64,000 nucleotides of DNA from Gammaproteobacteria bacterium (GCA_002731775.1 PCCP01000082.1:2091-66090); one strand, 5' to 3'. Numbered from the stretch's first letter, positions 1,863-56,088 are shown. Notes: generated by a model not told the origin, from the sequence alone. A program made the numbers and translations.

Positions 1863-3083
1863 ATGAAACTCTACACCACCATGACAAGCCTGGTGCTGGT
1901 GCTTGTACTCAATAGTAGCCCGGTTCACGCCCAACACCCCGATACCCAATTCATCGACCCGTCTGGCGGATTCACCCAGGTAGTCAGCACTTCAGACCAT
2001 GGCGTCAAGACGATCTATGTGTCAGGCCAGGTCGGCTCAGGCGAAGATTTCAAAGCCCATGTCGAAAGCGCATTTTCCGCTGTGGTAAGTCGACTCGAGA
2101 GTGCCGGCGCTAGCGTCGACGACGTGGTGAAGATCCGCATCTTCGTCGCAGACTTCGATCCGGCACAGTATGCGGTAATCCGCGAAACAAGGCTGCGCAC
2201 CTTCAATGAAGATGCGTGGCCTACAAGTACCATGGTGGGCGTGGAGTCATTGTTCGCCGCTGAGATGCGGATCGAGATCGAGGCAGTCGCGGTGATAGCG
2301 GATCCCGATGTCCCTGGCGCACGGGTAACGATAGAGCGCATAGGACCATCGAATGGTTTCAACCAGTCTGTAGTGGTGACAGCCAACGGCAGCAGGATAA
2401 TCTATATCTCCGGCCATGTTGGCCAGGGCGAGACACTGGCCGAGCAGTCGGCTTCGATGATGGCGACAATAGCCCAACGCTTGCAGGCGGCCGGTGCCGG
2501 GGTTGACGATCTGGTTAAGATCGTTACCTACATCACCGACTATACGAGGGCAGACGCCTCTATATTCGGCGCAGCCAGAAACGAGGCATTCGGTACTGAA
2601 AATCCGCCAGCCAGTACTCTGCTCGGAGTACAGTCCCTGGTTAGGGATCAATACCGGATCGAAATGGACGCCGTAGCCGTAGTGAGTGATAGTAACAATG
2701 GCGACTTTGAAACCGAGTTCATCGATGTCAACGCCAGCTACACCCAGGCAATAACAACACAGGGAAGCGGTGCGAAAAGGATCACCCTGTCCGGCCAGGT
2801 GGGTAACCCGGATGACGATCTTCAGACCCAGGCCAACCAGGTCTACGCCAATCTGCGGCGGCGCCTGGAAGCCGCGGGGGCCAGCCCCGCCGACCTGCTT
2901 AAGCTGACGATATACATGAATAATTATCAACCCGGCGATGCGTCAGTTCTCGCTATCGCTCGACAGAATAATGGATTTAACCCCGACAATCTCCCGGCTA
3001 CAACCCTGATCGGTGTCCAATCGCTGTACTCCAATGAAGCGCTCATCGAGATCGAAGGGGAGGCGGTGGTAACGGGTAGATAG
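1863..3083 (+). CDS. secreted protein made of three tandem YjgF/UK114 (RidA-like) domains
   Basis: 406-aa ORF with signal peptide MKLYTTMTSLVLVLVLNSSPVHA. Three ~125-aa units each carry RidA-type blocks: KTIYVSGQVG..VVKIRIFV..RIEIEAVAV; RIIYISGHVGQG..LVKIVTYI..RIEMDAVAVV; KRITLSGQVG..LLKLTIYM..LIEIEGEAVV. Confidence 0.85.
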   Translation: MKLYTTMTSLVLVLVLNSSPVHAQHPDTQFIDPSGGFTQVVSTSDHGVKTIYVSGQVGSGEDFKAHVESAFSAVVSRLESAGASVDDVVKIRIFVADFDPAQYAVIRETRLRTFNEDAWPTSTMVGVESLFAAEMRIEIEAVAVIADPDVPGARVTIERIGPSNGFNQSVVVTANGSRIIYISGHVGQGETLAEQSASMMATIAQRLQAAGAGVDDLVKIVTYITDYTRADASIFGAARNEAFGTENPPASTLLGVQSLVRDQYRIEMDAVAVVSDSNNGDFETEFIDVNASYTQAITTQGSGAKRITLSGQVGNPDDDLQTQANQVYANLRRRLEAAGASPADLLKLTIYMNNYQPGDASVLAIARQNNGFNPDNLPATTLIGVQSLYSNEALIEIEGEAVVTGR

Positions 3084-3128
3084 GGACTGATTCTTTTTTT
3101 CCGAAGAAAAATAAATCTGTCCTTTATT
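3081..3128. repeat. R1-type palindromic element
   Basis: TAGGGACTGATTCTTTTTTTCCGAAGAAAAATAAATCTGTCCTTTATT. Its first TAG is the stop of 1863..3083. Confidence 0.85.
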
Positions 3129-3146
3129 AAGACAGGAGAAATTATC

Positions 3147-5147
3147 TTGAATAATCGATTCAGATTACGCGTAATCGCTTTAACGGGTCTGCTGTTTACG
3201 GGCTTGGCCCTGATCAGCAGCACGATTCTAGCCCAGCAGGGCGCTACCGATGGTGAATGGCGCAGCTACGCCGGCGGCACAGGCAGCTCCAAGTACACGG
3301 CGTTGGACCAGATCGATGCCGACAACGTCGAAAACCTGCGTGTCGCCTGGCAGTGGCAATCGGTGGATGGGCGCTTCGATCTGCAGCAGCTGACGCAGGA
3401 ATATCCAAACCTGCGGGTTGCCAACGACGTCGATGTCGTGCGCATAGCCAACCTCAAGGCGACGCCGCTAATGGTGGGCGGCGTTCTCTATATCTCCACC
3501 CCTTTATCCCAGATCGCGGCGATCGAGGCTGCCACCGGCGAAACTCTCTGGACCCATGATCCGCGCGCCTATGCCTCTGGCATTCCCACCATGATGCTGG
3601 GCTTCAGTAACCGCGGCCTGGCCTATTGGAGCGACGGTGAACAGGGGCGGTTAATCATGGGTACCGGCGACGCCTTCCTGGTCGCGCTGGATACCAACAG
3701 TGGAGAACCGATTCCAGGTTTCGGCACTGACGGCCGGGTCGACCTGGTAGTCGGCATACCCAGGGCCCGCAGATCCCCGGCGCCGATAAATTACTCCATT
3801 ACCTCGGCCCCCACTGTGTGCGGGGACGTGATTGTTGTGGGCTCCGCGGTCTCAGACCAGCCCTACCTGCGCGAGGCGCCCCCGGGATATGTGCGCGGCT
3901 TCGATGCCCGCAGCGGCGAGCTGCTGTGGACCTTTCACACCATCCCCCAACCGGGAGAGTATGGTCACGAAACCTGGCTTGATGATTCCTGGCAGTACAC
4001 CGGCAACGTCAACGTCTGGACCATGATGAGCGCCGATGAAGAGCTCGGCTATGTCTACCTGCCAATTGGCAACGCCACCAACGATCACTATGGTGGGCAT
4101 CGGCCCGGAAATCATCTGTTCGCCAATTCACTGGTGGCCCTGGATTGCACCACGGGTGAGCGGGTGTGGCACTTCCAGATGGTACATCACGATCTTTGGG
4201 ACTACGATCCGCCGGCTGCTCCCAACCTCATCGACATCACCGTGGACGGAAGGGCCATCAAAGCCGTCGCCCAGGTGACCAAGCATGCCTTTACTTTTGT
4301 GTTCGATCGCGAGACCGGCGAACCGGTGTGGCCAATCGAAGAGCGACCAGTTGCCGCCTCCGATGTGCCGGGTGAGTGGACTTCTGAGACCCAACCCTTT
4401 CCTACCAAGCCGCCTGCCTATGATCTTCAGGGAGTCACTGTCGATGATCTTATCGAATTCACCCCCGAGCTGCGGGCCGAGGCCATCGAGATTCTGGCGA
4501 CTTATCGAAGCGGACCCATTTTTATACCGCCTTCTCTTATCGAAGACGGGCCGGACGGCACCCAGGGCACCATCGAAATGCCAGGCTACACCGGCGGTAC
4601 CAACTGGAATGGCGCGGCCATAGATCCGGAAACCGGCATTCTGTATGTGGCTTCTAGTACCTCACCGATTATTCCGCTGCTGGTGGTACCGGAGGAGGAA
4701 AACGCCACCCTTCGCTACGCCCGTGGCCCCATGCGCCCGCCCCAAGGGCCCGCGGGATTGCCTCTGTTCAAGCCGCCCTATGGCAGGATCACCGCCATCG
4801 ACCTCAACCGGGGAGAGATTATCTGGCAACGAGCCAATGGCATCGGTCCGCCGCGGGTGCGGGATCATCCAAGATTGGAGGGTCTGGAGTTGCCACCGCT
4901 AGGTGGAAACAGGGACCAGTTACTGGTCACCCAGACACTGCTGTTCTCGGGTCAGCAACAACCGAATGCAGATGGAACTTACCTGTTAACCGCCCGTGAC
5001 AAGGCCACCGGCGATGTCCTGGCAGAAATCCCATTGCCCGGAAGGGCGATAGGAGCACCGATGAGCTACATGGTCGGCGGCAGGCAATACATCGCTGTTA
5101 CCGTGCAGGGTGATATACCCCAGCTGGTTGCATTGGCGCTGGATTAA
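3147..5147 (+). CDS. PQQ-dependent quinoprotein dehydrogenase (glucose/alcohol dehydrogenase-type beta-propeller), exported
   Basis: 666-aa ORF, TTG start, signal peptide. Motifs WRSYAGGTGSSKYTALDQI, GERVWHFQMVHHDLWDYD, TGEPVWPIEE, PPYGRITAIDLNRGE. Clear paralog of 61935..63875. Confidence 0.85.
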   Translation: MNNRFRLRVIALTGLLFTGLALISSTILAQQGATDGEWRSYAGGTGSSKYTALDQIDADNVENLRVAWQWQSVDGRFDLQQLTQEYPNLRVANDVDVVRIANLKATPLMVGGVLYISTPLSQIAAIEAATGETLWTHDPRAYASGIPTMMLGFSNRGLAYWSDGEQGRLIMGTGDAFLVALDTNSGEPIPGFGTDGRVDLVVGIPRARRSPAPINYSITSAPTVCGDVIVVGSAVSDQPYLREAPPGYVRGFDARSGELLWTFHTIPQPGEYGHETWLDDSWQYTGNVNVWTMMSADEELGYVYLPIGNATNDHYGGHRPGNHLFANSLVALDCTTGERVWHFQMVHHDLWDYDPPAAPNLIDITVDGRAIKAVAQVTKHAFTFVFDRETGEPVWPIEERPVAASDVPGEWTSETQPFPTKPPAYDLQGVTVDDLIEFTPELRAEAIEILATYRSGPIFIPPSLIEDGPDGTQGTIEMPGYTGGTNWNGAAIDPETGILYVASSTSPIIPLLVVPEEENATLRYARGPMRPPQGPAGLPLFKPPYGRITAIDLNRGEIIWQRANGIGPPRVRDHPRLEGLELPPLGGNRDQLLVTQTLLFSGQQQPNADGTYLLTARDKATGDVLAEIPLPGRAIGAPMSYMVGGRQYIAVTVQGDIPQLVALALD

Positions 5148-5187
5148 AAATAGGAATTCCTGTTTTTGGGGAGGCGGTCGTGGCGGG

Positions 5188-5238
5188 TAAATAGGGACTG
5201 ATTCTTTTTTTCCGAAGGAAAAATAAATCTGTCCCTAT
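5188..5238. repeat. R1-type palindromic element (near-identical copy of 3081-3128, same orientation)
   Basis: TAAATAGGGACTGATTCTTTTTTTCCGAAGGAAAAATAAATCTGTCCCTAT. Confidence 0.85.
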
Positions 5239-5243
5239 GTATC

Positions 5244-5717: not shown

Positions 5718-5850
5718 TAGCGAATCCTCCGTTGTGTAACACTTACAATGAACTTTTTCGTTCATGGCAGGCACAGTTTCAACCAGGCCCCCTGAATAGG
5801 AACTGAATCGCAAATGAAATAGCGGATACACTGTGTCTTCAGATTTTTCC

Positions 5851-5875
5851 AAAAAACGGGGTCTGTCCCCTATTT
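5851..5875. repeat. R2-type half-site (reverse orientation)
   Basis: AAAAAACGGGGTCTGTCCCCTATTT. Confidence 0.7.
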
Positions 5876-5985
5876 CCTGCAACAGGAAACAATAGACTTG
5901 AGCAGGGATAGCTTTTAGTCTGGTTAACCTAGGTCACTGACCCACGAGCTCGACTACCAGTGGTGACCACTCGGGAGGACCAGAC

Positions 5986-14575: not shown

Positions 14576-14650
14576 AAAAAAGGGACAGAATTATTTACCA
14601 GCGCGACTCTCATCCAATGATGGATCCAAAAATAGATCTGTCCCTATCTA
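14576..14650. repeat. R1-type palindromic element
   Basis: AAAAAAGGGACAGAATTATTTAC ... AAAAATAGATCTGTCCCTATCTA. Overlaps the stop of 14648..15667. Confidence 0.8.
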
Positions 14651-17516: not shown

Positions 17517-17605
17517 CTTGATCCTCCTTATAGAGTCGTCAATGGAGTATAAAGGGCGCCCACAACTTAACAACTTATAGTGCCGAGTGGACACAGCAGT
17601 TCCTG

Positions 17606-21177: not shown

Positions 21178-21228
21178 AAAAAGGGACAGAACTATTTTCC
21201 TGAAGAAAACAGATCTGTCCCTATTTTC
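21178..21228. repeat. R1-type palindromic element
   Basis: AAAAAGGGACAGAACTATTTTCC TGAA GAAAACAGATCTGTCCCTATTTTC. Confidence 0.85.
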
Positions 21229-21285: not shown

Positions 21286-22137
21286 ATGGACAAAATCAGA
21301 CGCAAATTGCTCAAAACCGGCGTCGCCGCTACCTTGATGGCAGCGACACCGCAGGTGTTTTCACAACAGATTGGGCAATCCGGAGAAGCCATGTCTATCT
21401 ACGAAAGAGGCGATGTTAGCATCCGCTACGAAGAGTCGGGCTCTGGGTTTCCGTTGTTGCTTATAGCCGGCGGTGGCCTGGACTCCTCGATCGCAAGCAT
21501 CAAACGGGGCCGGCCATTTAATCCCATCGAAGAGTTCAAAGGCGAGTACCGCACTATCGTGGCGGATCTGCGTAACGCCAACGGTGGGCAATCCAGTGGG
21601 CCGCTGGAGATCGAGCGGCCATGGGATTCGTTCACCGACGACCACCTGGGACTGATGGATCATCTGGGTATCGACAAATTCATGGTGTTGGGTTTTTGTA
21701 TCGGCGGGCCTTTTATCTGGAACCTGCTGGAGCGCGCACCGGATCGTGTCGTTGCGGCGGTGTTGGCGCAGCCCAGCGGGTTCAGTCCGGAACATCCCGA
21801 ACTATTCCACCAACGCAATATGGCGGGTTGGGGGCCTGAGTTTGTCAAACGTCGGCCCGAGATCAGCATGGAAATGGTAGACCAGTTCCTTACCGAGATG
21901 TACATCACCAATGGTGACTTCGTGTTTACAGTAACGCGCGATTTCGTGCGCAGCTGCCAAACCCCCGTACTAATTCTGCCCGATGATATTCCGGTACATC
22001 CCTACGCCGTTGCCATGGAAGCGGCAATGCTCGCACCAAATGCCGAGGTGAGCCTGTTTCCATGGAAACAGCCTGAGGAGAGAATAGCGCTTGCGGTTCG
22101 CCATATACGATCATTCCTCAGGGCGCATCGAAAATAA
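21286..22137 (+). CDS. alpha/beta-fold hydrolase with Tat-like leader
   Basis: 283 aa. Leader MDKIRRKLLKTGVAATLMAATPQVFS. Core GFPLLLIAGGG ... FMVLGFCIGG. Confidence 0.65.
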   Translation: MDKIRRKLLKTGVAATLMAATPQVFSQQIGQSGEAMSIYERGDVSIRYEESGSGFPLLLIAGGGLDSSIASIKRGRPFNPIEEFKGEYRTIVADLRNANGGQSSGPLEIERPWDSFTDDHLGLMDHLGIDKFMVLGFCIGGPFIWNLLERAPDRVVAAVLAQPSGFSPEHPELFHQRNMAGWGPEFVKRRPEISMEMVDQFLTEMYITNGDFVFTVTRDFVRSCQTPVLILPDDIPVHPYAVAMEAAMLAPNAEVSLFPWKQPEERIALAVRHIRSFLRAHRK

Positions 22138-22153
22138 ATCTGTCCCTATTTAC
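22130..22153. repeat. R1-type half-site
   Basis: GAAAATAAATCTGTCCCTATTTAC. It contains the TAA stop of 21286..22137. Confidence 0.8.
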
Positions 22154-22233: not shown

Positions 22234-24426
22234 ATGAAAACAAAAACACCATTATCGAGAATCACCCTTGCAGCTTGCCTGTTGGCCCTCGCGGCCTGCG
22301 GTCAGCCGGAGCAAGAAACCTCAGCTCAAGCTGAGCCAGTTGTCTCCGACGCGCCAGGTATCAGCTCCGATCAGAATGATATCGGGGGCGTCGTCACCAG
22401 TACTGACGGTCCTGAAGCCGGGGTATGGGTCATCGCCGAAACCGACGATTTACCAACTCTCTATTCAAAAACCGTTGTAACCGACGAGGACGGGCGCTAT
22501 CTCATGCCTGACCTGCCTGCGGCGCAGTATGACATTTGGGTGCGAGGTTACGGCCTGGTCGACTCGGAGAAAGTCAATGCCGTTCCCGGTCAATCCCTGG
22601 ATCTGAACGCGGTGATCGCGCCCGATGCCGCTGCGGCCGCTGCTTATTACCCTGCCGGGAACTGGTACTCGCTGTTGGAGATCCCGGCCAGGAGTGAATT
22701 TCCCGGTACCGGTGCGGACGGTAACGGTATTTCTCCCAATATTCACAACCAGGCTGACTTTATGCGGCGGGTGAGTAGCGGCGGCTGCCTGGCCTGTCAC
22801 CAGTTGGGCAACGCGGCAATCCGAAACATACCTGGCTTATTCAGTGGTTACGATACGTCAATTGAAGCCTGGGATCGTCGCGTGCGATCGGGCCAGGCCG
22901 GCGGCTCCATGAGCAGGGCCCTGGCCGGTATGGGTGGCCGAGCGCTGCAGATGTATGCCGACTGGACCGACCGGATTGCGGCCGGTGAGTTACCGCCGGT
23001 ACCGGAACGCCCTTCTGGCCTGGAACGCAACGTGGTCATTACCCAATGGGACTGGGCGGATCCCACCGCTTACCTGCACGATCTCGTTTCCACCGACAGG
23101 CGCGATCCGACCAGGAATGCTTACGGCAAAATCTATGGCGCCCTGGAAAACAGCGCGGATTATCTGCCGGTACTGGATCCCCAAACGAATACCATAGCCC
23201 AGATCCCAGTGTTCCCGGAAGACCCGGATTACAATCCCGAGCCGTCCCGTCCTATGGCGGAATCACCCTATTGGGGTGACGAACCGATCTGGGATGCCTC
23301 GACTACAGTACATAATCCCATGCTGGATCAGGATGGCAGAGTCTGGATCACTGCCCGGGCACGGGCCCCGCAAGATGTACCGGCGTTCTGCCAGGAAGGC
23401 TCCGATCACCCGTCTGCGCAGGCATTTCCATTGGGACGCTCCGGGCGACATCTCGGTGTCTATGATCCGGACACGGAAGTGTATACCCCGATCAATACCT
23501 GTTTCGGCACCCATCACCTGATGTTCGCCGAGGACGCAGACAATACCCTGTGGACCAGCGGCGGCGGCAGGGTGATCGGCTGGCTGAATACTCGCCAATA
23601 CCTGGAAACAGGCGATGCGGTGGCGGCTCAGGGGTGGACACCGTTCATTCTGGATACCAACGGCAACGGACGGCGGGACGAAGATTACGTTGAGCCGGAC
23701 CAAGCGGTTGACCCATCGCGGGACAAGCGCATCAACTCCGGTTTTTACGCCGTGTCGCCAGCGCCAGATGGGTCTGTGTGGGGCTCCAACCTCAGCTATC
23801 CCGGCGCCGTCGTGCGATTGATGCCGGGTGACGATCCCAGCGTTACCGCACTGACCGAATATTATGAACTGCCGCTCGATGCCAATGGCGATCCGATCGA
23901 GGGATTCTCGCCCCGCGGTATGGATGTCGACCGCAACGGTGTCGCCTGGGTAGCTCTGGCCAGTGGTCATATGGCGAGCTTCGACCGCTCCCTCTGCCAG
24001 GGTCCGTTGAACGGCCCGGAGGCGACAGGCCAGCACTGCGCGGAAGGCTGGACCTTCTATACCGAGCCACTGCCCCAGTTCAAGAATATCGATACGTCGG
24101 GCAGCTCCGAAGGCAGCTATTACACCTGGGTGGATCAGTTCGATACCTTCGGGCTGGGTGAAAACACGCCGATCAATACGGGAAATCAATCGGGCGCGCT
24201 GTTAGCGCTCAATGATGGCGAGTGGGTTCGCTTGCGGGTGCCTTATCCGTTGGGCTTCTACACCAAGTGGATTGATGGCCGTATAGATGACCCTGATGCT
24301 GGATGGAAAGGTCGTGGTTTGTGGACAACCTTTAGCAGCAGAGCGCCTTTTCATATGGAGACCGGTGCCGGGACATCGAGCAAGGTTTACCATTTTCAGA
24401 TGCGGCCTGACCCTTTAGCTAAATAG
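22234..24426 (+). CDS. lipoprotein with N-terminal carboxypeptidase-regulatory-like domain and a single heme-c motif
   Basis: 730 aa. Lipobox LLALAACGQ. GGVVTSTDGPEAGVWVIAETDD..TVVTDEDGRYLMPDLPAAQYDIWVRGYG. CXXCH = CLACH. Confidence 0.6.
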   Translation: MKTKTPLSRITLAACLLALAACGQPEQETSAQAEPVVSDAPGISSDQNDIGGVVTSTDGPEAGVWVIAETDDLPTLYSKTVVTDEDGRYLMPDLPAAQYDIWVRGYGLVDSEKVNAVPGQSLDLNAVIAPDAAAAAAYYPAGNWYSLLEIPARSEFPGTGADGNGISPNIHNQADFMRRVSSGGCLACHQLGNAAIRNIPGLFSGYDTSIEAWDRRVRSGQAGGSMSRALAGMGGRALQMYADWTDRIAAGELPPVPERPSGLERNVVITQWDWADPTAYLHDLVSTDRRDPTRNAYGKIYGALENSADYLPVLDPQTNTIAQIPVFPEDPDYNPEPSRPMAESPYWGDEPIWDASTTVHNPMLDQDGRVWITARARAPQDVPAFCQEGSDHPSAQAFPLGRSGRHLGVYDPDTEVYTPINTCFGTHHLMFAEDADNTLWTSGGGRVIGWLNTRQYLETGDAVAAQGWTPFILDTNGNGRRDEDYVEPDQAVDPSRDKRINSGFYAVSPAPDGSVWGSNLSYPGAVVRLMPGDDPSVTALTEYYELPLDANGDPIEGFSPRGMDVDRNGVAWVALASGHMASFDRSLCQGPLNGPEATGQHCAEGWTFYTEPLPQFKNIDTSGSSEGSYYTWVDQFDTFGLGENTPINTGNQSGALLALNDGEWVRLRVPYPLGFYTKWIDGRIDDPDAGWKGRGLWTTFSSRAPFHMETGAGTSSKVYHFQMRPDPLAK

Positions 24427-24530
24427 GGGCAGATTTATTTTCCCGGGCGGCCGCGACCACGGTGCTCGATACGCACGCAATAAATAGGGACAGAACTATT
24501 TTTCTACTGAAAATAAATCTGCCCCTATTT
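24421..24530. repeat. R1-type composite: perfect 22-nt outer inverted arms enclosing a third half-site
   Basis: AAATAGGGGCAGATTTATTTTC (24421-24442) and its exact reverse complement (24509-24530). Inner AAATAGGGACAGAACTATTTTT (24482-24503). Confidence 0.9.
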
Positions 24531-24715
24531 CTTTAAAACAGGTGCAGATCCGCACGCAACCAAGTTACTATATCAAGTGTTTGAAACCTGCTTAAAGTAA
24601 ATAGTTCGAACCAACAGTTATACACGATCAGCCCTGCCATCGGAGAACCTGCATAAAGTTCCAATTTTCGAGAAAGTCAGTCATTGCCACACCACTAGTT
24701 CTACTTTCATTTTTT

Positions 24716-26704: not shown

Positions 26705-26718
26705 TTGCCTATTGCCTT

Positions 26719-27300: not shown

Positions 27301-27381
27301 TGGGAATTAGAAGTAATTCATGCTTGCGCTATAACTCAGATAGAGCCATTTGCCACGGAAGGTTGAGGATACACTTAAGAT

Positions 27382-27561
27382 GTGGTTCGTCATCAGGGAA
27401 AAGCTGTAGACTTTAATCCCCAGCGTAAGCTTCCGTTCCCGCAGATTATCCAGGTAGTAGCAATAGTCATCCGCCTCGACAAACACCGCCTTGCGGTTGT
27501 GCCCTCGCTGCACAATATGGTGCGGTATCCCTGCCACAATAACCCTCGCTTTCCTTGGCAT
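27382..27561 (-). pseudogene. N-terminal fragment of a REP-associated tyrosine (Y1, IS200-like) transposase (RAYT)
   Basis: MPRKARVIVAGIPHHIVQRGHNRKAVFVEADDYCYYLDNLRERKLTLGIKVYSFSLMTNH matches the first ~60 aa of RAYT-type transposases up to the HUH motif. Similarity stops at 27382; the rest of ORF 27307..27561 is unrelated. Confidence 0.8.
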
Positions 27562-27634: not shown

Positions 27635-27694
27635 GAAAATAAATCTGTCCCTATTTACTATATACTTTTGTAATTAGGGACAGCTTTAATTTTG
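27635..27694. repeat. two R1-type half-sites in outward-facing arrangement
   Basis: GAAAATAAATCTGTCCCTATTTAC (27635-27658) and AATTAGGGACAGCTTTAATTTTG (27672-27694). Confidence 0.8.
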
Positions 27695-27712: not shown

Positions 27713-28831
27713 ATGAGAAGACTGCTTACCACTATTGCTTGCTTATTTATTGCCGCACCCTGCGCGCTCGCTCAATACGCCCCGCAGATTTCGATTGAAT
27801 CCGTTCCCGACTTCTTTCAGCTACCACAGGGTATGAATTTTGGTGAAGCCTCCGCCATCGCAGTGAATTCACAAGGCCATATTTTTGTATTTCACCGATC
27901 CAACCCCTCTGGGGGTGGCCCCGCTTATGGCATGCATGCTGCGCAGCTATTTGAATTTGATAGCAACGGCCGCTATCAACGAGAACTCGGGCGGGGCTTA
28001 TACGCCTGGTCGTTTGCCCACGGGCTGCGCATAGACAGCAACGACAACATCTGGACCGTGGACAAAGGTTCCAACATGGTGGTGCGCATGGACCCCTCCG
28101 GCAGGGTGGTGTGGGTGTTCGGCAGAAAGACAGAATCGGTATCCGAAGCGGCCCGACCCTTCGAACATGTGGACACACCCCGACCTCCCCAGGATGGCCG
28201 TTTTCGCGAGCCCACGGATGTGGCGGTTGATTCGGCAGGCAACATTTACATCACCGATGGCTATATCAATTCCCGCGTCGCCAAATATGATTACAATGGT
28301 GACTGGGTAAAATCCTGGGGCGAACCGGGAACCGGCCCCGGACAGTTTCGACTCCCCCATAGCATCGCCATCGACAAGGCTGACAACGTCTATGTGGGGG
28401 ATCGTTCCAATGCCCGCATTCAAGTGTTCGACACCGATGGCAATTACCTGCGTGAATTCCGCGTAGCCACCCCGGTGCGTCCTGGCTCGAAGGCGGTTAA
28501 CGGACCCACGCCTACCGAACTCACCGAGATCAGTGCCAACGGCGCCCCCAATTCTTTGTGTATCCCACCGGGCAGCGACGTGATCTTCGTCGGGGAAACC
28601 ACTTTTCCAGGACGCATTATCAAAGCGACCTTACAGGGAGAGGTGCTGGGAGTCATTGGTAATTCAGGTAGGAATCTGGGAGAATTTTCTGGTGCCCATG
28701 GCCTCGCCTGCCCGTCAGAAGACGTTTTGTATGTGGCAGAGACGTCTAATTCTCGAGCGCAGAAGTTGCTTATTGGGGAACAGGGACAGATTTATTTTCC
28801 TGGGCGGGAGCGTCAGCGCTTCAAAAAATAA
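27713..28831 (+). CDS. exported NHL-repeat six-bladed propeller, peptidyl-alpha-hydroxyglycine lyase (PAL)-like
   Basis: Start moved to ATG 27713 (MRRLLTTIACLFIAAPCALA). NHL repeats: HGLRIDSNDNIWTVDKGSNMVVRMD, PTDVAVDSAGNIYITDGYINSRVAKYD, PHSIAIDKADNVYVGDRSNARIQVFD. The last 17 codons lie inside a repeat element. Confidence 0.7.
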   Translation: MRRLLTTIACLFIAAPCALAQYAPQISIESVPDFFQLPQGMNFGEASAIAVNSQGHIFVFHRSNPSGGGPAYGMHAAQLFEFDSNGRYQRELGRGLYAWSFAHGLRIDSNDNIWTVDKGSNMVVRMDPSGRVVWVFGRKTESVSEAARPFEHVDTPRPPQDGRFREPTDVAVDSAGNIYITDGYINSRVAKYDYNGDWVKSWGEPGTGPGQFRLPHSIAIDKADNVYVGDRSNARIQVFDTDGNYLREFRVATPVRPGSKAVNGPTPTELTEISANGAPNSLCIPPGSDVIFVGETTFPGRIIKATLQGEVLGVIGNSGRNLGEFSGAHGLACPSEDVLYVAETSNSRAQKLLIGEQGQIYFPGRERQRFKK

Positions 28832-28846
28832 ATCTGTCCCTATTTA
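28781..28846. repeat. R1-type palindromic element (long form)
   Basis: CAGGGACAGATTTATTTTCCTGGGCGG ... AAAAAATAAATCTGTCCCTATTT. The left arm lies inside CDS 27713..28831. Confidence 0.85.
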
Positions 28847-31654: not shown

Positions 31655-32266
31655 GTGAAAACAATTAGTTTTTTTGCCCTTTCGGTTTTGTTACTGAGTT
31701 CCTGTACGTCATCTACCGCACAATTTCAGGTGGGCCAGATTAGAACCGCTATGGGAGATATATTAATCTGGTTGTACCAGGACGTGCCTGAGCACAGAAT
31801 CAATTTTATCGAATTGGCCGAGGCCGGTTATTGGGATGACTACACCTTTAATCGGGTGATAGAGGGTTTCGTGGCTCAGGGCGGATGCCCGGACACACCG
31901 GAAGGTTTTGCCTATTCCATTCATCTTCTGGAGCCAGAGTTTCGAGAGAACTTGAAACATGTTTACGGCACCTTTGCGGCGGGCCGCGATGATAACCCCG
32001 GAAAGCTATCTGCGGGCTGTCAGTTTTATATTGTCCAGGACCCCGAAGGTATTCCTCGGCTGGATAATAATTACACGATCTATGGGCAGGTCTTTCGAGG
32101 TATGGACGTCATCGAATCAATCGTAAGAGTAGAAACTGATTCAGCCGATGCGCCACTGGAAGACATCGAACTGGACGTGAATGTGGTCCAAATGACCCGC
32201 GCGGCTATTGAGGCCAGCGGTTTTGAAATTCCGTTAGGGAACTGCGGGTCAGGTCTTGCATGTTAG
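31655..32266 (+). CDS. cyclophilin-type peptidyl-prolyl cis-trans isomerase lipoprotein
   Basis: Start moved to GTG 31655 (VKTISFFALSVLLLSSCTSS lipobox). FNRVIEGFVAQGG, AGCQFYIV, YTIYGQVFRGMDVIESI. The last 7 codons and the stop lie in an R3 repeat. Confidence 0.75.
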   Translation: MKTISFFALSVLLLSSCTSSTAQFQVGQIRTAMGDILIWLYQDVPEHRINFIELAEAGYWDDYTFNRVIEGFVAQGGCPDTPEGFAYSIHLLEPEFRENLKHVYGTFAAGRDDNPGKLSAGCQFYIVQDPEGIPRLDNNYTIYGQVFRGMDVIESIVRVETDSADAPLEDIELDVNVVQMTRAAIEASGFEIPLGNCGSGLAC

Positions 32267-32304
32267 CACTCCTGATTTTCCCGCTAACATGCAAGACCTG
32301 ACCC
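32246..32304. repeat. R3-type palindromic element, perfect 22-bp arms
   Basis: GGGTCAGGTCTTGCATGTTAGC (32246-32267) and GCTAACATGCAAGACCTGACCC (32283-32304). Confidence 0.9.
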
Positions 32305-32885: not shown

Positions 32886-35507
32886 ATGAAATATTTACGC
32901 GCCGCGGAGCGCTTCCTGGTAGTCGTAATTGTGGCCCTGGTGCTGCCCTCAACCCTTGCCGCCCAGGCGCCTGCGCCGAGTGACGTTTTCGGTTTTGAAC
33001 CAGGAGATGACTACAAACTGGCCAGTTACGATCAGCTGCTGGAATACTATCGGCAGCTTGACGCTGCGAGCCCACGAGTGGTCTTGCAGGAAATTGGTAA
33101 TACGGTGCTGGGTCGACCATTGCTGCTATTGCTTATATCCAGTGAGGCCAACCTGGCTCAGCTGGATCGCTGGCAACAAATTAGCACCGATTTGGCAACC
33201 GCCCGAATCGACGAGGAAACGGCACGCCAGTACGCCAGGGAAGGCAAGGCTGTCGTCTGGATCGATGGTGGTCTGCACGCCACGGAGGTTGCGCCGTCAC
33301 AGATGTTGCCTAATTTAGCGCACCATATGGCGACCGATGAGAGTGAAGAAACACGACGCATTCGTGACAACGTGATCCTGCTGCTGATGCCCAGTATGAA
33401 TCCAGATGGCCTGGAAATAGTGCGCAACTGGTACCAGCGTAACCTCGAGACACCATTTGAAACCACACGACCTCCGGAACTCTACCACCACTATGTCGGA
33501 CATGATAATAATCGCGACTGGTTCATGAACAACATGCCAGAAACAGCGGCTGTCAGCAAAGTGCTTTACCAGCAGTGGTTTCCTCAAATCGTTTACAATC
33601 ATCACCAGAGCGGACCATCCTGGGCGCGCATTTTCCTGCCGCCTTTTTCCGACCCGGTAAACCCTAACATACATCCCGGGGTAACTACCGGTGTTAACCT
33701 GGTTGGCTCAGCCATGTCTAACCGTTTTGCCATGAAGCAGATGCCAGGGGCAGTGTCAGACATGACCTTCAGCATGTGGTGGAATGGTGGCATGCGCACC
33801 GTACCCTATTTTCACAACATGATTGGCCTATTGACTGAAACTTCTCATGCAACGGCGTCACCACGTTATTACGATCCTGAAGAACGACCGGAGCAGGTGG
33901 GGAATCCCCGGCGTGGGCAGTCGGCTCCTACCAGTGGCGAGGATATTTTCTATCCCTACCCCTGGCCCGGAGGTGATTCCCGCTTCAGTGATCCTGTGCG
34001 GTACACCTTCACCGCTTCCATGGCGGTGCTTGATATCGCCGCGGATCTCAAGGCGCGCTGGCTCTATGGTATTTACTCTATGGGCCGAGACGCCATCGCC
34101 GCGGCGGATGAGAATCGTTTTGCCTATGTGATCCCAGCTCAGCAATGGGACCCGCAAGAGGCCCGAAATCTGGTGGAGATCCTCATGCGCGGTGGTGTGG
34201 AAATTGAGAGCGCCAGTGAATATTTTTCCGCAGGCGAACATAACTTCGAAGCTGGCTCACACATCATCTATGGCAACCAGGCATTCAGAAATTACGCTAT
34301 CGACCTTTTAGAGAAACAGAGCTACCCGGACCGGCGCCGCACGCCCGATGGCCCGCCAGATCCCCCTTACGATCTTGCCGGCTGGACTCTGCCCATGCAG
34401 ATGGGGGTGGAAGTCATGCGGATCGATGAGGCTTTCTCCGCCAGCAGCCAGGCGCTTTCAGGCTTTCCTGACATCGAACCCGGATCGGTGTCCGGTGATC
34501 CCGGCTTCGGCTTTGCCTTCTCGTCTCAGACCAATGCTAATGTCCACGCGCTCAACCGCCTGACTCGCGCCGGTGAACGTGTGTTCCGGAGTGAGCAGGG
34601 TTTTACTGCGGGCAGCACAGATTTTCCGGCAGGAAGCTACATCGTTGAAAATCAGGGTCAGAATACTGTTTACCGGGTGAATGCAGCGGCAGCAACATTG
34701 GGCTTGGATTTTGTTGGTTTGAGTAGCAGATCGAATGTCGCGCTTACGCTGCAAGAACCTGTACGGGTTGGACTGTACAAGTCCTGGGTAGCGAACATGG
34801 ATGAGGGCTGGACGCGTTGGTTACTCGAGAACTATGAATTCGAGTTTGAAACATTGCTCGATCGGGATGTGCGCGAAACCGATCTATCCCGCTTCGATGC
34901 GATCCTGTTACCTAGTCAGGATGCGGCCTCGCTGCTGAATGGACACACGCCCGGTACCATGCCGGACGAATATGTTGGGGGGCTAGGTCTCGCGGGCGCC
35001 CTCGCTCTCAAGCAATTCGTGGAAGCCGGCGGCACACTGGTCACGCTTGATGCCGCCAGTGATTTCGCAATTAAGCAGTTCGGATTGCCAGTCGAGAACA
35101 CCGTCGCTGACACCACAGACCGTCAGTTCTTTATTCCCGGTTCTCTGATTCGTGCCAAAGTGGATACCAGCCATCCCTTGGCAGCCGGAACGCAAGAAGA
35201 ATTGGCTACCTCCTTCGTGAACAGTCGTGCGTTTGAAGTTGTGACTATCCCTCGTACTCAGGAAGGCGGTGAAGAACAGACACCGGAGCCGCCAGAGCAA
35301 CCAGTGGAAACCATTGTCAGTTATGCAAAAGAGGATATTTTGATGAGCGGCTGGGCTCTCGGGGAAGAAGAATACATCGCTGAGAAGGCGGCCATGATGA
35401 AGGTCCGCCTGGGTGAAGGTAGTGTTATCCTGTTCGGGTTCCGGCCCCAGTTTCGAGGTCAGCCACGGGCGACGTATAAATTGCTATTCAATTCGCTGCT
35501 GCAATAA
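32886..35507 (+). CDS. secreted M14-family zinc carboxypeptidase (large form)
   Basis: 873 aa with signal peptide. VVWIDGGLHATEVA and HHYVGHDNNRDWF are the M14 zinc/active-site blocks. Confidence 0.8.
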   Translation: MKYLRAAERFLVVVIVALVLPSTLAAQAPAPSDVFGFEPGDDYKLASYDQLLEYYRQLDAASPRVVLQEIGNTVLGRPLLLLLISSEANLAQLDRWQQISTDLATARIDEETARQYAREGKAVVWIDGGLHATEVAPSQMLPNLAHHMATDESEETRRIRDNVILLLMPSMNPDGLEIVRNWYQRNLETPFETTRPPELYHHYVGHDNNRDWFMNNMPETAAVSKVLYQQWFPQIVYNHHQSGPSWARIFLPPFSDPVNPNIHPGVTTGVNLVGSAMSNRFAMKQMPGAVSDMTFSMWWNGGMRTVPYFHNMIGLLTETSHATASPRYYDPEERPEQVGNPRRGQSAPTSGEDIFYPYPWPGGDSRFSDPVRYTFTASMAVLDIAADLKARWLYGIYSMGRDAIAAADENRFAYVIPAQQWDPQEARNLVEILMRGGVEIESASEYFSAGEHNFEAGSHIIYGNQAFRNYAIDLLEKQSYPDRRRTPDGPPDPPYDLAGWTLPMQMGVEVMRIDEAFSASSQALSGFPDIEPGSVSGDPGFGFAFSSQTNANVHALNRLTRAGERVFRSEQGFTAGSTDFPAGSYIVENQGQNTVYRVNAAAATLGLDFVGLSSRSNVALTLQEPVRVGLYKSWVANMDEGWTRWLLENYEFEFETLLDRDVRETDLSRFDAILLPSQDAASLLNGHTPGTMPDEYVGGLGLAGALALKQFVEAGGTLVTLDAASDFAIKQFGLPVENTVADTTDRQFFIPGSLIRAKVDTSHPLAAGTQEELATSFVNSRAFEVVTIPRTQEGGEEQTPEPPEQPVETIVSYAKEDILMSGWALGEEEYIAEKAAMMKVRLGEGSVILFGFRPQFRGQPRATYKLLFNSLLQ

Positions 35508-35509
35508 AT

Positions 35510-35582
35510 AGGGACAGACCACGTTTTTCGATTTCAGAGACTGGCTAATTGCCGTCCGAATAGAAAAACGTGGTCTGTCCCT
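35510..35582. repeat. R2-type palindromic element, perfect 20-bp arms
   Basis: AGGGACAGACCACGTTTTTC (35510-35529) and GAAAAACGTGGTCTGTCCCT (35563-35582), between convergent M14 and S9 peptidase genes. Confidence 0.9.
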
Positions 35583-35591
35583 AGTTTTGTT

Positions 35592-51140: not shown

Positions 51141-51155
51141 ATTGCTTGTGGGGGG

Positions 51156-51180
51156 TAAAAATGGGGTCTGTCCCTATTTT
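51156..51180. repeat. R2-like half-site
   Basis: TAAAAATGGGGTCTGTCCCTATTTT. It contains the TAG stop (51176-51174, minus strand) of the acetoacetyl-CoA synthetase gene. Confidence 0.75.
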
Positions 51181-53144
51181 TCCCGGGCATATTCCAGAAA
51201 ATAATTAATTACTTCAGGATTACGCATCGCACCCAGGTTCGCCGCTCGATCGACCTCCATGCCAAGCAGGATTTTACGAATGGGCACTTCCATCTTCTTA
51301 CCGCTTAAGGTATAAGGCACTTCCTCAATTGTCAGCATTTCATTGGGCACGTGGCGCGGTGAAACATCGCGGCGCAGCTTATCGCGTATTCGGGTTTTGA
51401 GATCTTCATCCAGGCTCGCCCCCTCTCTTAATACCAGGAACAGTGGCATGAAAGATTCCCGACCGTGGAACTCCAGGTCGATAATCAGGCTATCGAGTAT
51501 TTCATCGAAAGATTCCACCACCTGATAAATCTCGCTGGTTCCCATGCGTATGCCCTGGCGGTTTATGGTTGAGTCCGAGCGGCCGAATATCACGCAGCCA
51601 CCACGGTCGTTAAATCGTATCCAATCGCCATGGCGCCAGATACCGGGATACATGCTGAAATAACTTTCTGTGTACAGCGTCATGTTCTCGTCATTCCAAA
51701 AATAGAGTGGCATGGACGGCATCGGTTCGGTGATAACCAGTTCCCCAAGCTCATTCCTTACCGGCTTTGCTTCCTCATCGAAGGCCTGCACATTAGCGCC
51801 AAGGGACGCGCATTGAATCTCACCGGTATAGATCGGCAAGGTGCGCGCACCGCCGACAAAGGCGGTACACAGATCGGTGCCACCACTAAGCGACTCCAGC
51901 GCCAGATCCTTATTGATATTTTCGTATACCCATTGAAACCCGTCTGTGGACAAGGGTGATCCAGAGGAGCCAACTGCTCGGATCGCACTCAGCTCATAGT
52001 CCTGATTCGGGTGAGTTCCGGCTTTCCTGCAGGCGTCTATAAATGCTGCCGAAGTGCCAAAATAAGTCACACCGGCTTTCTCTGCCAATTCGAATTGCAC
52101 ATTCATGCTCGGGTATGCGGGGCTGCCGTCGTAAATTACCAGGGTCGCCCTGGCGAACAGCGCACCGACCAGATAATTCCACATCATCCATCCGGTGCTG
52201 GAATACCAGTAGAAACGATCATCGGGTTTTATATCATTGTGGAACACCAGTGCCTTGCAATGTTCCAACACGATACTGCCATGACCATGCACAATGGGTT
52301 TAGGCAAGCCGGTAGTGCCGGAGGAGTATAAAACCCAGAGCGGATGATCGAATGGCAGTTGCGCAAAAGTAAGGCTTGAATCGTCAGCATTGCTCAGCGC
52401 TTGCGACCAGAGCACTGTGTTGATCAGACCTGCCGTTCCTTTGCTAATGTGATCGATGAGTATTGTTTGCTTAACGGTGGGTAATGCCTGCTGAATTTCT
52501 GCCACCACGGCTCGGCGGTCATGGGTATTGCCGCCAAAGTCATAGCCATCTACCGCTAACAGCACCTTCGGTTGTATCTGGATAAATCGATCCAGCACGC
52601 TGCTTTTGCCGAAGTCCGGAGGACAACTGGACCAGACGGCACCGATGCTGCTTACGGCTAACAAAGCCACAATAGCTTCAGGAATATTTGGCAGGTAGGC
52701 GACGACGCGGTCGCCTTCTTTGACACCCAACTGCTTGAGAACTGCGGCCAAACGTCGAGTCTGTTCTTCTATTTCCGCCCAGCTGTATTCCTGCAGCTCG
52801 GTTTTCTCTCCCTTGAAGAGGAGCATGGGCTTGCTGTCAACGCGCCGGGCAAAGATATTTTCCGCATAGTTGAGACGAACACCCAGAAACCATTCGGCGC
52901 CGGGCATCTTTCGCTGCGTTAATACCGCCGACCATTTCTCGCTATAGGTGAGCTCAAAATATTCCCACAGGGATTCCCAAAAATCTTCGATGTGATCGAC
53001 AGACCAACGCCAGAGTTCGTCGTAGCTGTCGACTTCAACGCCCCTGGCAGCGAGCCAGGTGATATAGCGGGTGATATTGGCACTGGCGATAGTTTCGTCC
53101 GACGGCGTCCAAAGCGGTGTGAGATCTTTAGCTGAATGATTCAT
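51174..53144 (-). CDS. acetoacetyl-CoA synthetase (acetoacetate--CoA ligase)
   Basis: Start moved to ATG 53144. PLWTPS..ITRYITWL..YDELWRWSVDHIEDFWESLWEYF plus AMP-binding core YSSGTTGLPKPIVH. Confidence 0.85.
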   Translation of the reverse strand: MNHSAKDLTPLWTPSDETIASANITRYITWLAARGVEVDSYDELWRWSVDHIEDFWESLWEYFELTYSEKWSAVLTQRKMPGAEWFLGVRLNYAENIFARRVDSKPMLLFKGEKTELQEYSWAEIEEQTRRLAAVLKQLGVKEGDRVVAYLPNIPEAIVALLAVSSIGAVWSSCPPDFGKSSVLDRFIQIQPKVLLAVDGYDFGGNTHDRRAVVAEIQQALPTVKQTILIDHISKGTAGLINTVLWSQALSNADDSSLTFAQLPFDHPLWVLYSSGTTGLPKPIVHGHGSIVLEHCKALVFHNDIKPDDRFYWYSSTGWMMWNYLVGALFARATLVIYDGSPAYPSMNVQFELAEKAGVTYFGTSAAFIDACRKAGTHPNQDYELSAIRAVGSSGSPLSTDGFQWVYENINKDLALESLSGGTDLCTAFVGGARTLPIYTGEIQCASLGANVQAFDEEAKPVRNELGELVITEPMPSMPLYFWNDENMTLYTESYFSMYPGIWRHGDWIRFNDRGGCVIFGRSDSTINRQGIRMGTSEIYQVVESFDEILDSLIIDLEFHGRESFMPLFLVLREGASLDEDLKTRIRDKLRRDVSPRHVPNEMLTIEEVPYTLSGKKMEVPIRKILLGMEVDRAANLGAMRNPEVINYFLEYAREK

Positions 53145-53211
53145 GGTGGCTAATGCTGTGTAAGACAAAGGGACGGGCATCGGAATGATAACCTAAACCT
53201 ATTTCACTGTC

Positions 53212-55924: not shown

Positions 55925-55926
55925 CA

Positions 55927-55972
55927 GGGGGTCAGGTTTTTCCATTTGCACCTCGGCTGAGCAAGACCTGAG
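55927..55972. repeat. R5/R3 hybrid element
   Basis: GGGGGTCAGGTTTTTCCATTTGCAC ... GCAAGACCTGAG. Confidence 0.65.
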
Positions 55973-56002
55973 TAATTGACGAGGGGCATCGGAAACGTAT
56001 TC

Positions 56003-56048
56003 GGGGTCAGATCTCCATTTGCTCATGTGCAAATAGCGACCTGGCCCC
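56003..56048. repeat. R5-type imperfect hairpin
   Basis: GGGGTCAGATCTCCATTTGCTCATGTGCAAATAGCGACCTGGCCCC. Confidence 0.75.
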
Positions 56049-56059
56049 GATGTCTTTTC

Positions 56060-56088
56060 TTAAGTTGTTACGTTGTGACTGTCCCCTA
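56060..56088. repeat. R7 motif (TTAAGTTGTTA-CGTTGTG) ending in CTGTCCCCTA
   Basis: TTAAGTTGTTACGTTGTGACTGTCCCCTA. The terminal CTA is the TAG stop (minus strand) of 56086..57123. Confidence 0.7.

Follow-up and report, generated by a model that had tools for sequence, protein, structure and literature searches.

Stop codons supplied by REP-type palindromic repeats at gene ends in a marine gammaproteobacterium

Introduction

How can a dense family of repeats occupy a compact genome without destroying the genes around it? The question is raised by a 64,000-nucleotide stretch of gammaproteobacterial DNA (GCA_002731775.1 PCCP01000082.1:2091-66090), referred to here as the window, in which the stop codons of nine coding sequences (CDSs) lie in or directly beside short palindromic repeats. 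An earlier note offered two explanations: that the elements insert at the TA or TAR of stop codons, or that insertions just inside gene ends are tolerated because the element carries its own stop. Absent from it were both the REP/RAYT-type identity of the repeats and the published precedent (PMC3733652). Excerpts of that paper, by Di Nocera, De Gregorio and Rocco (2013), report that the ends of REPs frequently provide TAG stops. The supply of stops by repeat ends in the window is real and far beyond chance, but it has been published for related REPs, as these excerpts indicate.

The repeats and the genes that end in them

Each unit of the principal repeat, R1, folds into one perfect hairpin, (T)AAATAGGGACAGATTTATTTTC-loop-GAAAATAAATCTGTCCCTATTT(A), whose stem measures about 20 bp. 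Followed inwards from either side, the outermost paired bases are (T)A-A-A-T-A-G, so that each end offers a TAG in one frame and, if a T precedes, a TAA in a second. The R1 end is AAATAG/GGACAG, and ATAG is found on both arms, paired with CTAT. As RNA the hairpins are predicted to fold with −25 to −53 kcal/mol (z −3.8 to −8.7 against shuffles). There are 24 repeat arms in the window, and the following features bear on the question.

3078..3128, R1 hairpin in degenerate form; CDS 1863-3083 stops at its TAG (3081-3083)
5189..5240, R1 hairpin with convergent genes on its two sides
14577..14650, R1 hairpin, loop of 33 nt; its ATAGGGACAG adjoins the TAG (14650-14648) of CDS 14648-15667 (minus strand)
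21178..21226, tight R1 copy (43 nt) between divergent genes, no stop involved
22130..22151, minus strand, solo R1 arm; its inner TAA (22135-22137) ends CDS 21286-22137
24421..24537, nested R1 in which two left arms, 39 nt apart, precede the loop and the right arm
27379..27561, minus strand, 61-codon N-terminal remnant of an R1-type RAYT (Y1 transposase) gene, found by tblastn
27635..27692, two back-to-back solo R1 arms (27635-27658 and 27670-27692) adjoining the RAYT remnant
28778..28844, R1 hairpin with left foot CAG where the consensus has TAG
32246..32304, R3 hairpin, GGGTCAGGTCTTGCATGTTAGC and its complement; its TAG (32264-32266) ends CDS 31526-32266
35506..35586, R1 variant with ACCACGTTTTTC arms, adjoining the TAA (35505-35507) of CDS 32886-35507
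51155..51179, minus strand, solo R1-variant arm; the acetyl-CoA-synthetase-like CDS 51174-53180 stops at its TAG (51176-51174)
56076..56088, minus strand, solo head TAGGGGACAG; its TAG (56088-56086) is the stop of CDS 56086-57123

All nine coincidences of stop and repeat that the earlier note had listed were recovered at their coordinates. The repeat-end TAG is itself the stop codon of 1863-3083, 22234-24426 (TAG 24424-24426, in the nested copy), 51174-53180 (minus strand; 51174-53144 in the earlier note) and 56086-57123 (minus strand), and the stops of 32886-35507 and 14648-15667 stand directly before ATAGGGACAG. The other three stops are internal to an arm: TAA within GAAAATAAATCTGTCCC for 21286-22137 and again, at 28829-28831, for the CDS with a start at 27692 or 27713, and TAG within the R3 arm ATGTTAGC for the CDS with a start at 31526 or 31655. 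All three are read-throughs or truncations of secondary origin. CDS 27692-28831 runs 16 codons through R1 to the TAA of the right arm, and 31526-32266 has a 10-codon extension into the R3 hairpin before its TAG.

The CDSs are real: seven of the nine have Pfam domains; the remaining two have orthologues across the genus, and CDSs within about 10.6-31.2 kb are also called as genes on the public population contigs that cover that stretch. Neighbouring genes end or begin close by as well. Seen in the direction of the gene, 5244-5882 (minus strand) stops 9 nt before the TAGGG of the copy at 5189..5240, and the stop of 3147-5147 is 47 nt from the other end of the same copy. The next minus-strand gene starts 12 nt downstream of the other arm of 14577..14650, and the stop of 35592-38039 (minus strand) is 6 nt beyond the CCCTA (35579-35583) that closes the other arm of 35506..35586. 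The hairpin at 3078..3128 folds no better than shuffles (z = +0.35) and is therefore a decayed copy.

Membership of the REP/RAYT class

Sister species G024 carries an intact RAYT-like gene (G024:C1:1669902-1670591, 229 aa) with R1 copies on both sides. Its product scores 53 bits against Pfam Y1_Tnp (53-59 for the RAYT-like proteins; cut-off 23), and the best NCBIfam family of the RAYT-like protein is REP_Tyr_transpos, at 71.7 bits where the equivalog cut-off is 80. The same gene is found on contig C39 of sister species G017, immediately preceded by an R1 copy and a degenerate solo arm and cut off on its other side by the contig end. The presence of an R1-flanked, intact RAYT-like Y1 gene in a sister species places R1 in the REP/RAYT ("TIR-repeat") world. 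The remnant in the window is 69% identical to the R1-flanked gene of G024 (tblastn); no intact R1-type RAYT gene was found in this assembly, which is 90% complete.

Other Y1 genes of G024 stand between inverted repeats of their own with GGGGTCAG heads, and in L071 and L074 heads of the type GGGGTCAGAG... stand in inverted orientation on both sides of a Y1 gene, so that inverted GGGGWSAS repeats flank Y1 genes in the manner of TIR repeats. The R1 consensus head, AGGGACAG, is one base off GGGGWSAS; the copies at 24424 and 56088 have GGGGCAG and GGGGACAG. Like REPs, R1 is a short, mostly intergenic palindrome in high copy, and copies of the same repeat flank a Y1 (HUH) gene, fully in G024 and partly at G017:C39. 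Arms number 153 in G017, where almost all are identical and most match the consensus or differ from it by one base, and 32 in G024, while most members of the genus have few or none. No Rfam family matches R1.

The excerpts of PMC3733652 describe GTAG-tagged REPs and the TIRs of TIRYT genes in terms that apply here: short palindromes in high copy, located at most 20 bp from the 3' ends of convergent or co-directional genes, with termini that give TAG stops, linked Y1 genes flanked by the repeats, and a GGGGWSAS head (here GGGGTCAG, GGGGACAG, GGGGACAC and, in R1, AGGGACAG). In contrast to the unpaired GTAG at one hairpin end that marks REPs, the TAG of R1 is part of an ATAG that is base-paired and occurs at each end of a perfect 20-bp stem, and the host, an uncultured marine gammaproteobacterial genus, also differs from those of the systems in the excerpts. 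These excerpts contain no mention of superposition in register on a native stop or of mirrored copy-specific flanks.

Overlap with stop codons compared with chance

As a control for chance, each arm was moved by 5-150 nt and stops of ORFs of at least 150 aa were counted at offset 0 or −4. The window has six such stops for 24 arms; shifted arms give 0.04 on average and at most 2 in any of 2000 trials. The count is 9 for 62 arms in sister species G017 (control 0.13) and 1 for 30 in G024 (control 0.04). The overlap to which the earlier note drew attention exceeds the shifted control far beyond chance. Among the G017 arms with a stop within 12 nt, read-through occurs in 0 of 16, though one frame in three has no stop in the foot.

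Throughout this assembly, stops at most 33 nt before a GGGGWSAS-type head are TAG in 33 cases, TAA in 29 and TGA in 8, compared with 610, 646 and 580 for all other long ORFs; TGA is depleted near the heads (odds ratio 0.28, p = 2e-4), in genome-wide statistics that are limited by the location of 18 of the 26 loosely matched R1 arms (G000) on the single contig studied here. Heads of the R3 family lie within about 200 nt of three contig ends, and the repeats may therefore break the assembly.

Gene ends in related genomes

Comparison with orthologues placed the stop at its ancestral codon at 9 of 12 informative terminal-stop gene ends, with a tenth one codon off. The last one or two codons have been rewritten at four of the nine unchanged ends, three of them to Lys-stop. 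At another gene end, with a repeat 12 nt downstream, the native stop has been kept. In what follows, tails are written up to the residue before the stop.

Eight orthologues of 22234-24426 stop at the same codon, with ...PDPLA[K/R/N] or, in G014, ...PGPLAN. Those of 32886-35507 end ...LLQ at the same codon, except that of G051, which is longer by one. The G052 orthologue of 14648-15667 ends ...RRVE at the same position and is followed by a different repeat family. Where 51174-53180 ends, the three closest genomes have REK, RKK or KK, and two more distant ones [TS]QLS[NS]. CDS 56086-57123 is one codon short of the G047 tail RRAEREQASN, with a common RRAERE motif; a second orthologue tail, LEAEQAAQND (G056), is not alignable. 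For 21286-22137, ...AHRK is found where G003 has ...AHRPA, one codon longer with its own stop. Orthologues of the two genes with extensions end ...KLILGN or ...LILSP where the left foot of 28778..28844 sits (27692-28831), and ...IP or ...IPE (31526-32266). No orthologue of 1863-3083 was found in 60 genus genomes.

At young R1 copies in G017, five gene ends are in register: a 906-aa gene (GSK in both species), a 314-aa gene (AVK vs DVR or EVD), a 363-aa gene (LIS vs LIG; G024 has LAK, with the element shifted by 4 nt), a 402-aa gene (FLEK vs FLAD or ALRD) and a 595-aa gene (NTS with TAA vs NTA with TGA in four orthologues). Two young ends are out of register, by +2 codons in a 332-aa gene and by −3 in a 344-aa gene, which ends ...PPGK where the empty site of G024 has ...PPSYGPH. 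At this empty site two convergent stops are 7 nt apart in G024, and two R1 copies lie within 262 nt in G017. Between filled and empty sites, 5 to more than 18 native bases have been replaced. In G017, the tail of a 637-aa gene is not conserved and thus uninformative, and no orthologue of a 624-aa gene was found. The sites also show turnover: different repeat families adjoin the same orthologous stops in G014, G052, G003, G024 and L011, and one G017 copy stands in place of the left arm of an element still present in G024.

Each of the two ideas in the earlier note is borne out only in part. Insertion at the TA or TAR of stops agrees with the largely unchanged stop positions and with the preference for TAR over TGA near the repeats; a stop brought by the element is directly visible in the rewritten tails of the 344-, 402-, 314- and 595-aa genes and of 21286-22137. 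The two do not compete: the foot (T)AAATAG overlies the stop and overwrites one or two codons.

Proposed explanation and alternatives

With a probability of roughly two in three, in our estimate, REP-type repeats of the class that flanks RAYT/TIRYT genes settle in register on the stops of gene ends, and secondary read-through follows. The direct observations behind this reading are the anatomy of the element, its linkage to RAYT in sister species, the excess of overlaps, the conservation in register and the rewritten tails. The repeats would belong to the class with GGGGWSAS-type heads that flanks genes for IS200/IS605-like Y1 HUH transposases. They would settle at gene 3' ends, where new copies may displace older ones at the same sites. 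The foot would be laid in register on an existing stop, leaving its codon position unchanged, while the stop codon and often the last one or two codons too would be rewritten, typically to Lys-stop or Ser-stop. Where the TAG of a foot is later mutated, or an arm lost, translation would continue to the next stop inside the element.

The register may reflect the mode of integration, through similarity or microhomology of NNN-AAN-TAR gene ends to the foot or through an own-end target of the IS200/IS605 kind. A hairpin at the stop might act on the mRNA by 3'-end protection and/or ribosome stalling at termination; in E. coli, ribosomes are reported to stall at REPs at most 15 nt from a stop (Liang et al. 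2015, cited in an excerpt of PMC12306157).

According to PMC8266576, the mechanism by which REPs disseminate is still unknown. More tentatively, and with considerable doubt, mirrored flanks, arm variants that are always compensated and micro-duplications at junctions might be the footprint of RAYT-type palindrome copying, with stops captured by matching of the foot. A single-stranded hairpin intermediate would be cut a few bases outside one foot, and either fill-in from the recessed 3' end or a fold-back template switch to the same effect would write each new copy as X-arm-loop-arm'-X'. The element would integrate by matching its own (T)AAATAG foot to similar gene ends, which would explain the capture of stops in register. 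If true, this would be the first genomic read-out of how REPs disseminate.

The rival that fares best dispenses with targeting. Copies would land at random, purifying selection in a compact genome would keep the harmless ones, and the overlap with stops would be survivorship, stops in two of three frames per end making insertions near gene ends harmless. The two young G017 ends out of register, the remodelled acs tail, the read-through tails in the window and the very short intergenic spacers (7 nt at the empty G024 site) are all as expected from it. We nevertheless think it unlikely, since nine of 12 ends keep the exact stop position and a tenth is one codon off, though orthologue tails naturally vary by 1-2 residues, and since none of the 16 G017 arms nearest to stops shows read-through.

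Much harder to credit is R1 as a TA-duplicating MITE of the IS630/Tc1-mariner or Correia type, in which the terminal TAs would be a target-site duplication and stops the commonest tolerated TA sites. R1 does start and end with TA, and the adjoining stops are TAR and not TGA; a duplicated TA would look like a longer stem, given that the palindrome itself begins and ends with TA. The flanks outside the TA, however, are mirrored and not direct, where a MITE would have unrelated flanks; the linked gene encodes a Y1/HUH transposase and not a DDE enzyme; and filled sites differ from empty ones by replacement of native bases, with no clean TA insertion.

Least credible of all are non-mobile, host-evolved terminators or uptake-signal pairs, overlapping stops because a terminator is best placed directly after a gene: the hairpins are stable, occur at gene 3' ends, have a stem preceded by an A-tract and followed by a T-tract, and are fixed in the population, but the near-identical G017 arms in a genus whose members mostly have few or none, the clustering of copies around the RAYT gene, several copies between divergent genes or upstream of start codons, a pattern scan that flagged no R1 site (16 sites found vs 15.7 in shuffles), a tail of only TATTT after the R1 stem, where an intrinsic terminator has a run of T behind a G+C-rich stem and short loop, and the lack of an Rfam match all speak against them. 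A mobile origin is already supported independently of the terminator question. A DNA-uptake sequence was rejected because only a few species of the genus have the motif in abundance and because its copies cluster within genomes.

Comparison with other repeats and significance

R1 resembles the REP/BIME elements of E. coli and their RayT (TnpA-REP) in having a hairpin directly downstream of a stop and in the link to a domesticated Y1 transposase. E. coli REPs are imperfect, G+C-rich, about 35 nt long and have an unpaired GTAG, whereas R1, A+T-rich outside its GGGACAG head, shares bases with the stop codon. R1 also resembles, in its Y1 HUH enzyme and its hairpin ends, the IS200/IS605 elements such as IS608, whose target motif is identical to the sequence beside the left end; a fixed target of this type would look like part of the repeat. 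R1 differs in carrying no gene and in its symmetric ends, and a target motif is only inferred for it. Correia elements of Neisseria and RPEs of Rickettsia are likewise small mobile palindromes that border on or extend into coding regions and can provide or change the ends of proteins. Correia elements duplicate TA directly and are not known to have a linked Y1 transposase; RPEs enter the interior of genes in frame, whereas the site of R1 is the stop codon. The excerpts of PMC3733652 cite RPEs as well.

Evidence from orthologues and an empty site shows how a repeat family of very high density can live in a compact genome: a portable "Lys-stop" end on the native stop keeps gene length and rewrites the last codons. 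For annotation, many genes of this marine lineage owe their C-terminal residues and their TAG or TAA stops to the repeats, and the read-through tails of 10-16 residues (27692-28831, 31526-32266) are recent accidents and not domains. The lineage is abundant in ocean metagenomes (its marker protein is indexed in about 174 blocks of a public contig collection), which, with homogeneous copies and an adjoining RAYT gene in G017 and G024, makes it a good natural system for how REPs spread.

Population variation and element junctions

Ten public population contigs, 98-99.9% identical, all carry the elements. Among them neither presence/absence polymorphism of a whole element nor a species-level empty site at the nucleotide level was found, so mobility in this species is historical; the variation consists of junction micro-duplications only. 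A test for an IS608-like TAG target just outside the mirrored unit proved unspecific and was set aside (13/80 flanks, vs 11/80 and 12/80 in controls shifted by 8 and 12 nt), and no rule for CT/CA cleavage dinucleotides at the unit boundary was apparent by eye.

At 21178..21226, seven of the ten contigs have the canonical AAATAGGG, where the window has AAAAAGGG. The right junction of the nested copy at 24421..24537 has a polymorphic TATTTCTT duplication. Copy-specific mirrored flanks and polymorphic micro-duplications at R1 junctions are reported as new side observations; the flanks are mirrored over at least 5 nt in 82% of 40 tight R1 copies, against 9.5% in the control.

Identity and distribution of the repeat

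R1, the repeat at issue in the window, is a single hairpin whose arms, AAATAGGGACAGATTTATTTTC and GAAAATAAATCTGTCCCTATTT, enclose a loop of 5-66 nt; in a second variant the arm reads ...GGGACAGACCACGTTTTTC. With the exception of a decayed copy at 3081, R1 copies fold as RNA at -25 to -53 kcal/mol (z -3.8 to -8.7). The hairpins do not fit the classical terminator pattern, and no Rfam family was matched. REPs and "TIR repeats" adjoining RAYT (REP-associated Y1 tyrosine transposase) or TIRYT genes and carrying a GGGGWSAS motif were described by Di Nocera et al. (2013; PMC3733652), and R1 belongs to that class. The kind of feature is already known; R1 is a new REP-type family from an uncultured marine lineage, the closest named records to the window being MAGs of uncultured marine Gammaproteobacteria.

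R1 arms are patchily distributed across the genus. Genome G017 has 153, mostly identical to the consensus or one base off and set as tight 41-45-nt hairpins. There are 32 in its sister species G024, 11 in G014, 11 in the assembly that holds the window (G000; 126 contigs, 3.47 Mb, 52% G+C), and 0-5 in each of 20 other genus genomes searched. In G024 the gene for a 229-aa Y1 transposase has R1 copies on both sides, and the same gene lies at the end of contig C39 in G017, immediately preceded by an R1 copy and a degenerate solo arm. Inverted repeats headed GGGGTCAG flank two other Y1 genes looked at in G024. The R1-linked protein scores above the Pfam Y1_Tnp cut-off; among NCBIfam families REP_Tyr_transpos fits it best, with 71.7 bits where the cut-off is 80. 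Of this gene the window has only a remnant:

27379-27561, minus strand, N-terminal RAYT remnant of 61 codons, 69% identical, adjoining two solo R1 arms

Such a remnant fits the state of R1 in the window species, in which arms are diverged, loops are long, solo arms occur, and no presence/absence variation of R1 was found among ten public population contigs (98-99.9% identity).

Loosely matched R1 arms of G000 are concentrated on the 66-kb window contig, C75 (18 of 26), which also has 12 of the 48 heads of R3, another hairpin family; three contigs (C57, C92, C122) have R3 heads no more than about 200 nt from an end. The assembly may have been broken by repeats, or the window region may be a hotspot near a dead RAYT gene. 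A gene adjoining the RAYT locus (L044:682-2469 in G017 vs. L124 in G024; L070 vs. L077) is 96% identical between these genomes, compared with 67-88% for other orthologue pairs, and the region comprising the RAYT gene and its flanking REPs may have been exchanged between them.

Stop codons at repeat ends

An earlier note claimed nine coincidences of stop codons with repeat ends in the window, and all nine were found at the coordinates given. With offsets counted from the T of TAGGG and only ORFs of at least 150 aa considered, the 24 arms in the window have stops at offset 0 (four), -4 (two) and -9 (one), while over 2000 trials with arms shifted by 5-150 nt the mean was 0.04 stops at offsets 0 and -4 and the maximum 2. 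One further offset-0 case, outside the scored scan, is the copy at 56088 (TAGGGGACAG). Three "internal stop" cases are secondary events (asterisks denote stops):

27692-28831, gene with CAG, not TAG, at the left foot and 16 extra codons to a TAA in the right arm; orthologues end at the foot, ...LILGN* or ...LILSP*
31526-32266, gene running 10 codons into an R3 arm; orthologues end ...IP* or ...IPE*
21286-22137, gene ending in a solo arm, one codon shorter than the G003 orthologue

The note had offered two ideas, that stops provide TA or TAR insertion sites, or that the element is tolerated because it brings its own stop. Comparison of stop positions supports these in part, as a combination rather than as alternatives: the stop marks where the element lands, and the element also brings a stop, often with a lysine codon. 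Other window genes compare with their orthologues as follows:

22234-24426, gene ending ...PDPLAK*; stop at the same codon in eight orthologues, some repeat-bearing and some not, with tails ...PDPLA[K/R/N]* (G014, ...PGPLAN*)
32886-35507, gene ending ...LLQ*, likewise in G014 and G056; one codon longer in G051
14648-15667, gene ending ...RRGE*; ...RRVE* in G052
56086-57123, gene one codon shorter than the tail in G047, the sole alignable orthologue tail
acs-like gene, ending REK*, RKK* or KK* in the three closest genomes, all repeat-bearing, and [TS]QLS[NS]* in two more distant (G014, locus L016; locus L013)

The acs-like tails divide the closest from the more distant genomes and therefore the tail was remodelled once. 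Gene ends at young R1 copies in G017 were compared with G024, G008, G013, G014 and G018:

906 aa, GSK*; orthologue GSK*; same stop position
314 aa, AVK*; orthologues DVR*, EVD*; same stop position
363 aa, LIS*; orthologue LIG*; same stop position
595 aa, NTS* (TAA); NTA* in four orthologues (TGA, TAA, TAG); same stop position
402 aa, FLEK*; orthologues FLAD*, ALRD*; same stop position
332 aa, KLATK*; orthologue KLG*; two codons longer
344 aa, PPGK*; orthologue PPSYGPH*; three codons shorter

In the window and G017 together, the stop is at the same codon in nine of 12 informative terminal-stop gene ends, and in a tenth (56086-57123) it is displaced by one codon. Four of the nine have one or two rewritten codons at the end, three to Lys-stop and the fourth (595 aa) to Ser-stop; the last residue of the 363-aa gene also differs (S vs. 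G). In G024 the latter gene ends LAK*, with the element shifted 4 nt and protein length unchanged. The 456-aa gene of G017 keeps its native RYK*, the element lying 12 nt downstream, and no read-through was found at any G017 arm lying within 12 nt of a stop. An empty and a filled site can be compared between the 332-aa and 344-aa genes, where G024 has convergent stops 7 nt apart and G017 a 262-nt stretch with two R1 copies. According to PMC3733652, a REP situated between two convergent genes is no more than 20 bp from either 3' end, and TAG stops are often provided by REP termini.

In other species, different repeat families adjoin the same gene ends, 0-12 nt from the stop (G014, G052, G003, G024 and locus L011), and the sites have therefore been re-used. 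At least five further head families adjoin orthologous stops (loci L073/L031 in G014, L049 in G052, L060 in G003, L109 in G024): GGGGTCAGGGACG, GGGTCAGGTCCCGC, GGTGTCAGATTTAATT, GGAGTCAGAATAAAT and GGGGTCAGAGTAAAAATAC. Several of them have nested arms and partial-end duplications.

TGA is depleted at repeat-adjoining stops in G000 (p = 2e-4): with a repeat head within 33 nt there are 33 TAG, 29 TAA and 8 TGA stops, compared with 610, 646 and 580 in other long ORFs. No other stop is as frequent in the window as TAG (19 of the 36 ORFs of 250 aa or more), which accounts for 34% of stops genome-wide in G000, a high share for a gammaproteobacterium, to which repeat heads may contribute.

The foot of R1, (T)AAATAG, is superimposed on the stop codon. 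A possible reason for the conserved register is the likeness of NNN-AAN-TAR gene ends to this foot, as in TTAGCTAATTAG in G052 vs. TTAGCTAAATAG in the window, and TATAAATAG in the 456-aa gene of G017. Integration through end similarity would fit the register, as would integration at a target motif identical to the terminus of the element, a feature of IS200/IS605 that is a proposal for R1. The main rival is pure survivorship, with no targeting. In E. coli, as relayed in PMC12306157, REPs have been credited with 3'-end protection, or, where no more than 15 nt separate hairpin and stop, with stalling ribosomes at termination; R1 hairpins would be likely to affect mRNA in one of these ways.

Mirrored flanks and junction duplications

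The flanks outside TAGGG...CCCTA mirror each other as inverted repeats, not direct duplications, in a set of 40 tight copies drawn from G017 and G024. The mirrored match reaches 5 nt or more in 82% of them and 6 nt or more in 70%, compared with 9.5% and 4.6% when the left flank of one copy is set against the right flank of another. Beyond TAGGG its median length is 6 nt, extending to 15 (L042-L048 in G017, L064-L068 in G024; for example L042:6485-6551 and L048:5839-5903). The mirrored part varies from copy to copy, and a local subfamily can share it: AGCTAAATAGGG...CCCTATTTAGCG is found in four copies, of which three lie on G017 contigs carrying or adjoining the RAYT gene and the fourth is next to the RAYT gene of G024. 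The CGGG mirrored at the 344-aa gene is non-native; at the 332-aa gene the far side mirrors the gene-side CTGGC, where G024 has CTGGGC. Loops vary between tight copies; complementarity of the arms is perfect throughout, even where both carry paired changes. The window's own older R1 copies have no mirrored flanks beyond AAA.

Many junctions contain short tandem duplications in which flank sequence and the element's first bases are repeated together, and a partial head is present in 18 of 82 flanks (background 4.4%). Two such micro-duplications are polymorphic in the population of the window species: TATTTCTT at 24525 (window 24521-24537) is single in the window and contig L097 and double in nine other contigs, and CCTATTG at 26700 (window 26695-26715) is present twice in the window and four times in contig L095. 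A filled-in hairpin intermediate, or a fold-back template switch, would explain both the mirrored flanks and the micro-duplications. Neither was found described in the available parts of two REP papers (PMC3733652, PMC8266576), the second of which calls the mechanism of REP dissemination unknown. The R1 lineage is useful natural material for work on mechanism.

Other population variation in the window

Window positions 30286-30374 (89 nt) are absent from one population contig (L096), and downstream of there, to about 31100, L096 and L092 show numerous small indels relative to the window. The spacer between 15815-16369 and 16527-17633 has a 16-nt insertion/deletion polymorphism at 16508-16523 (TACCTTCGGTTCTCTC), the segment being absent in six of ten population contigs.
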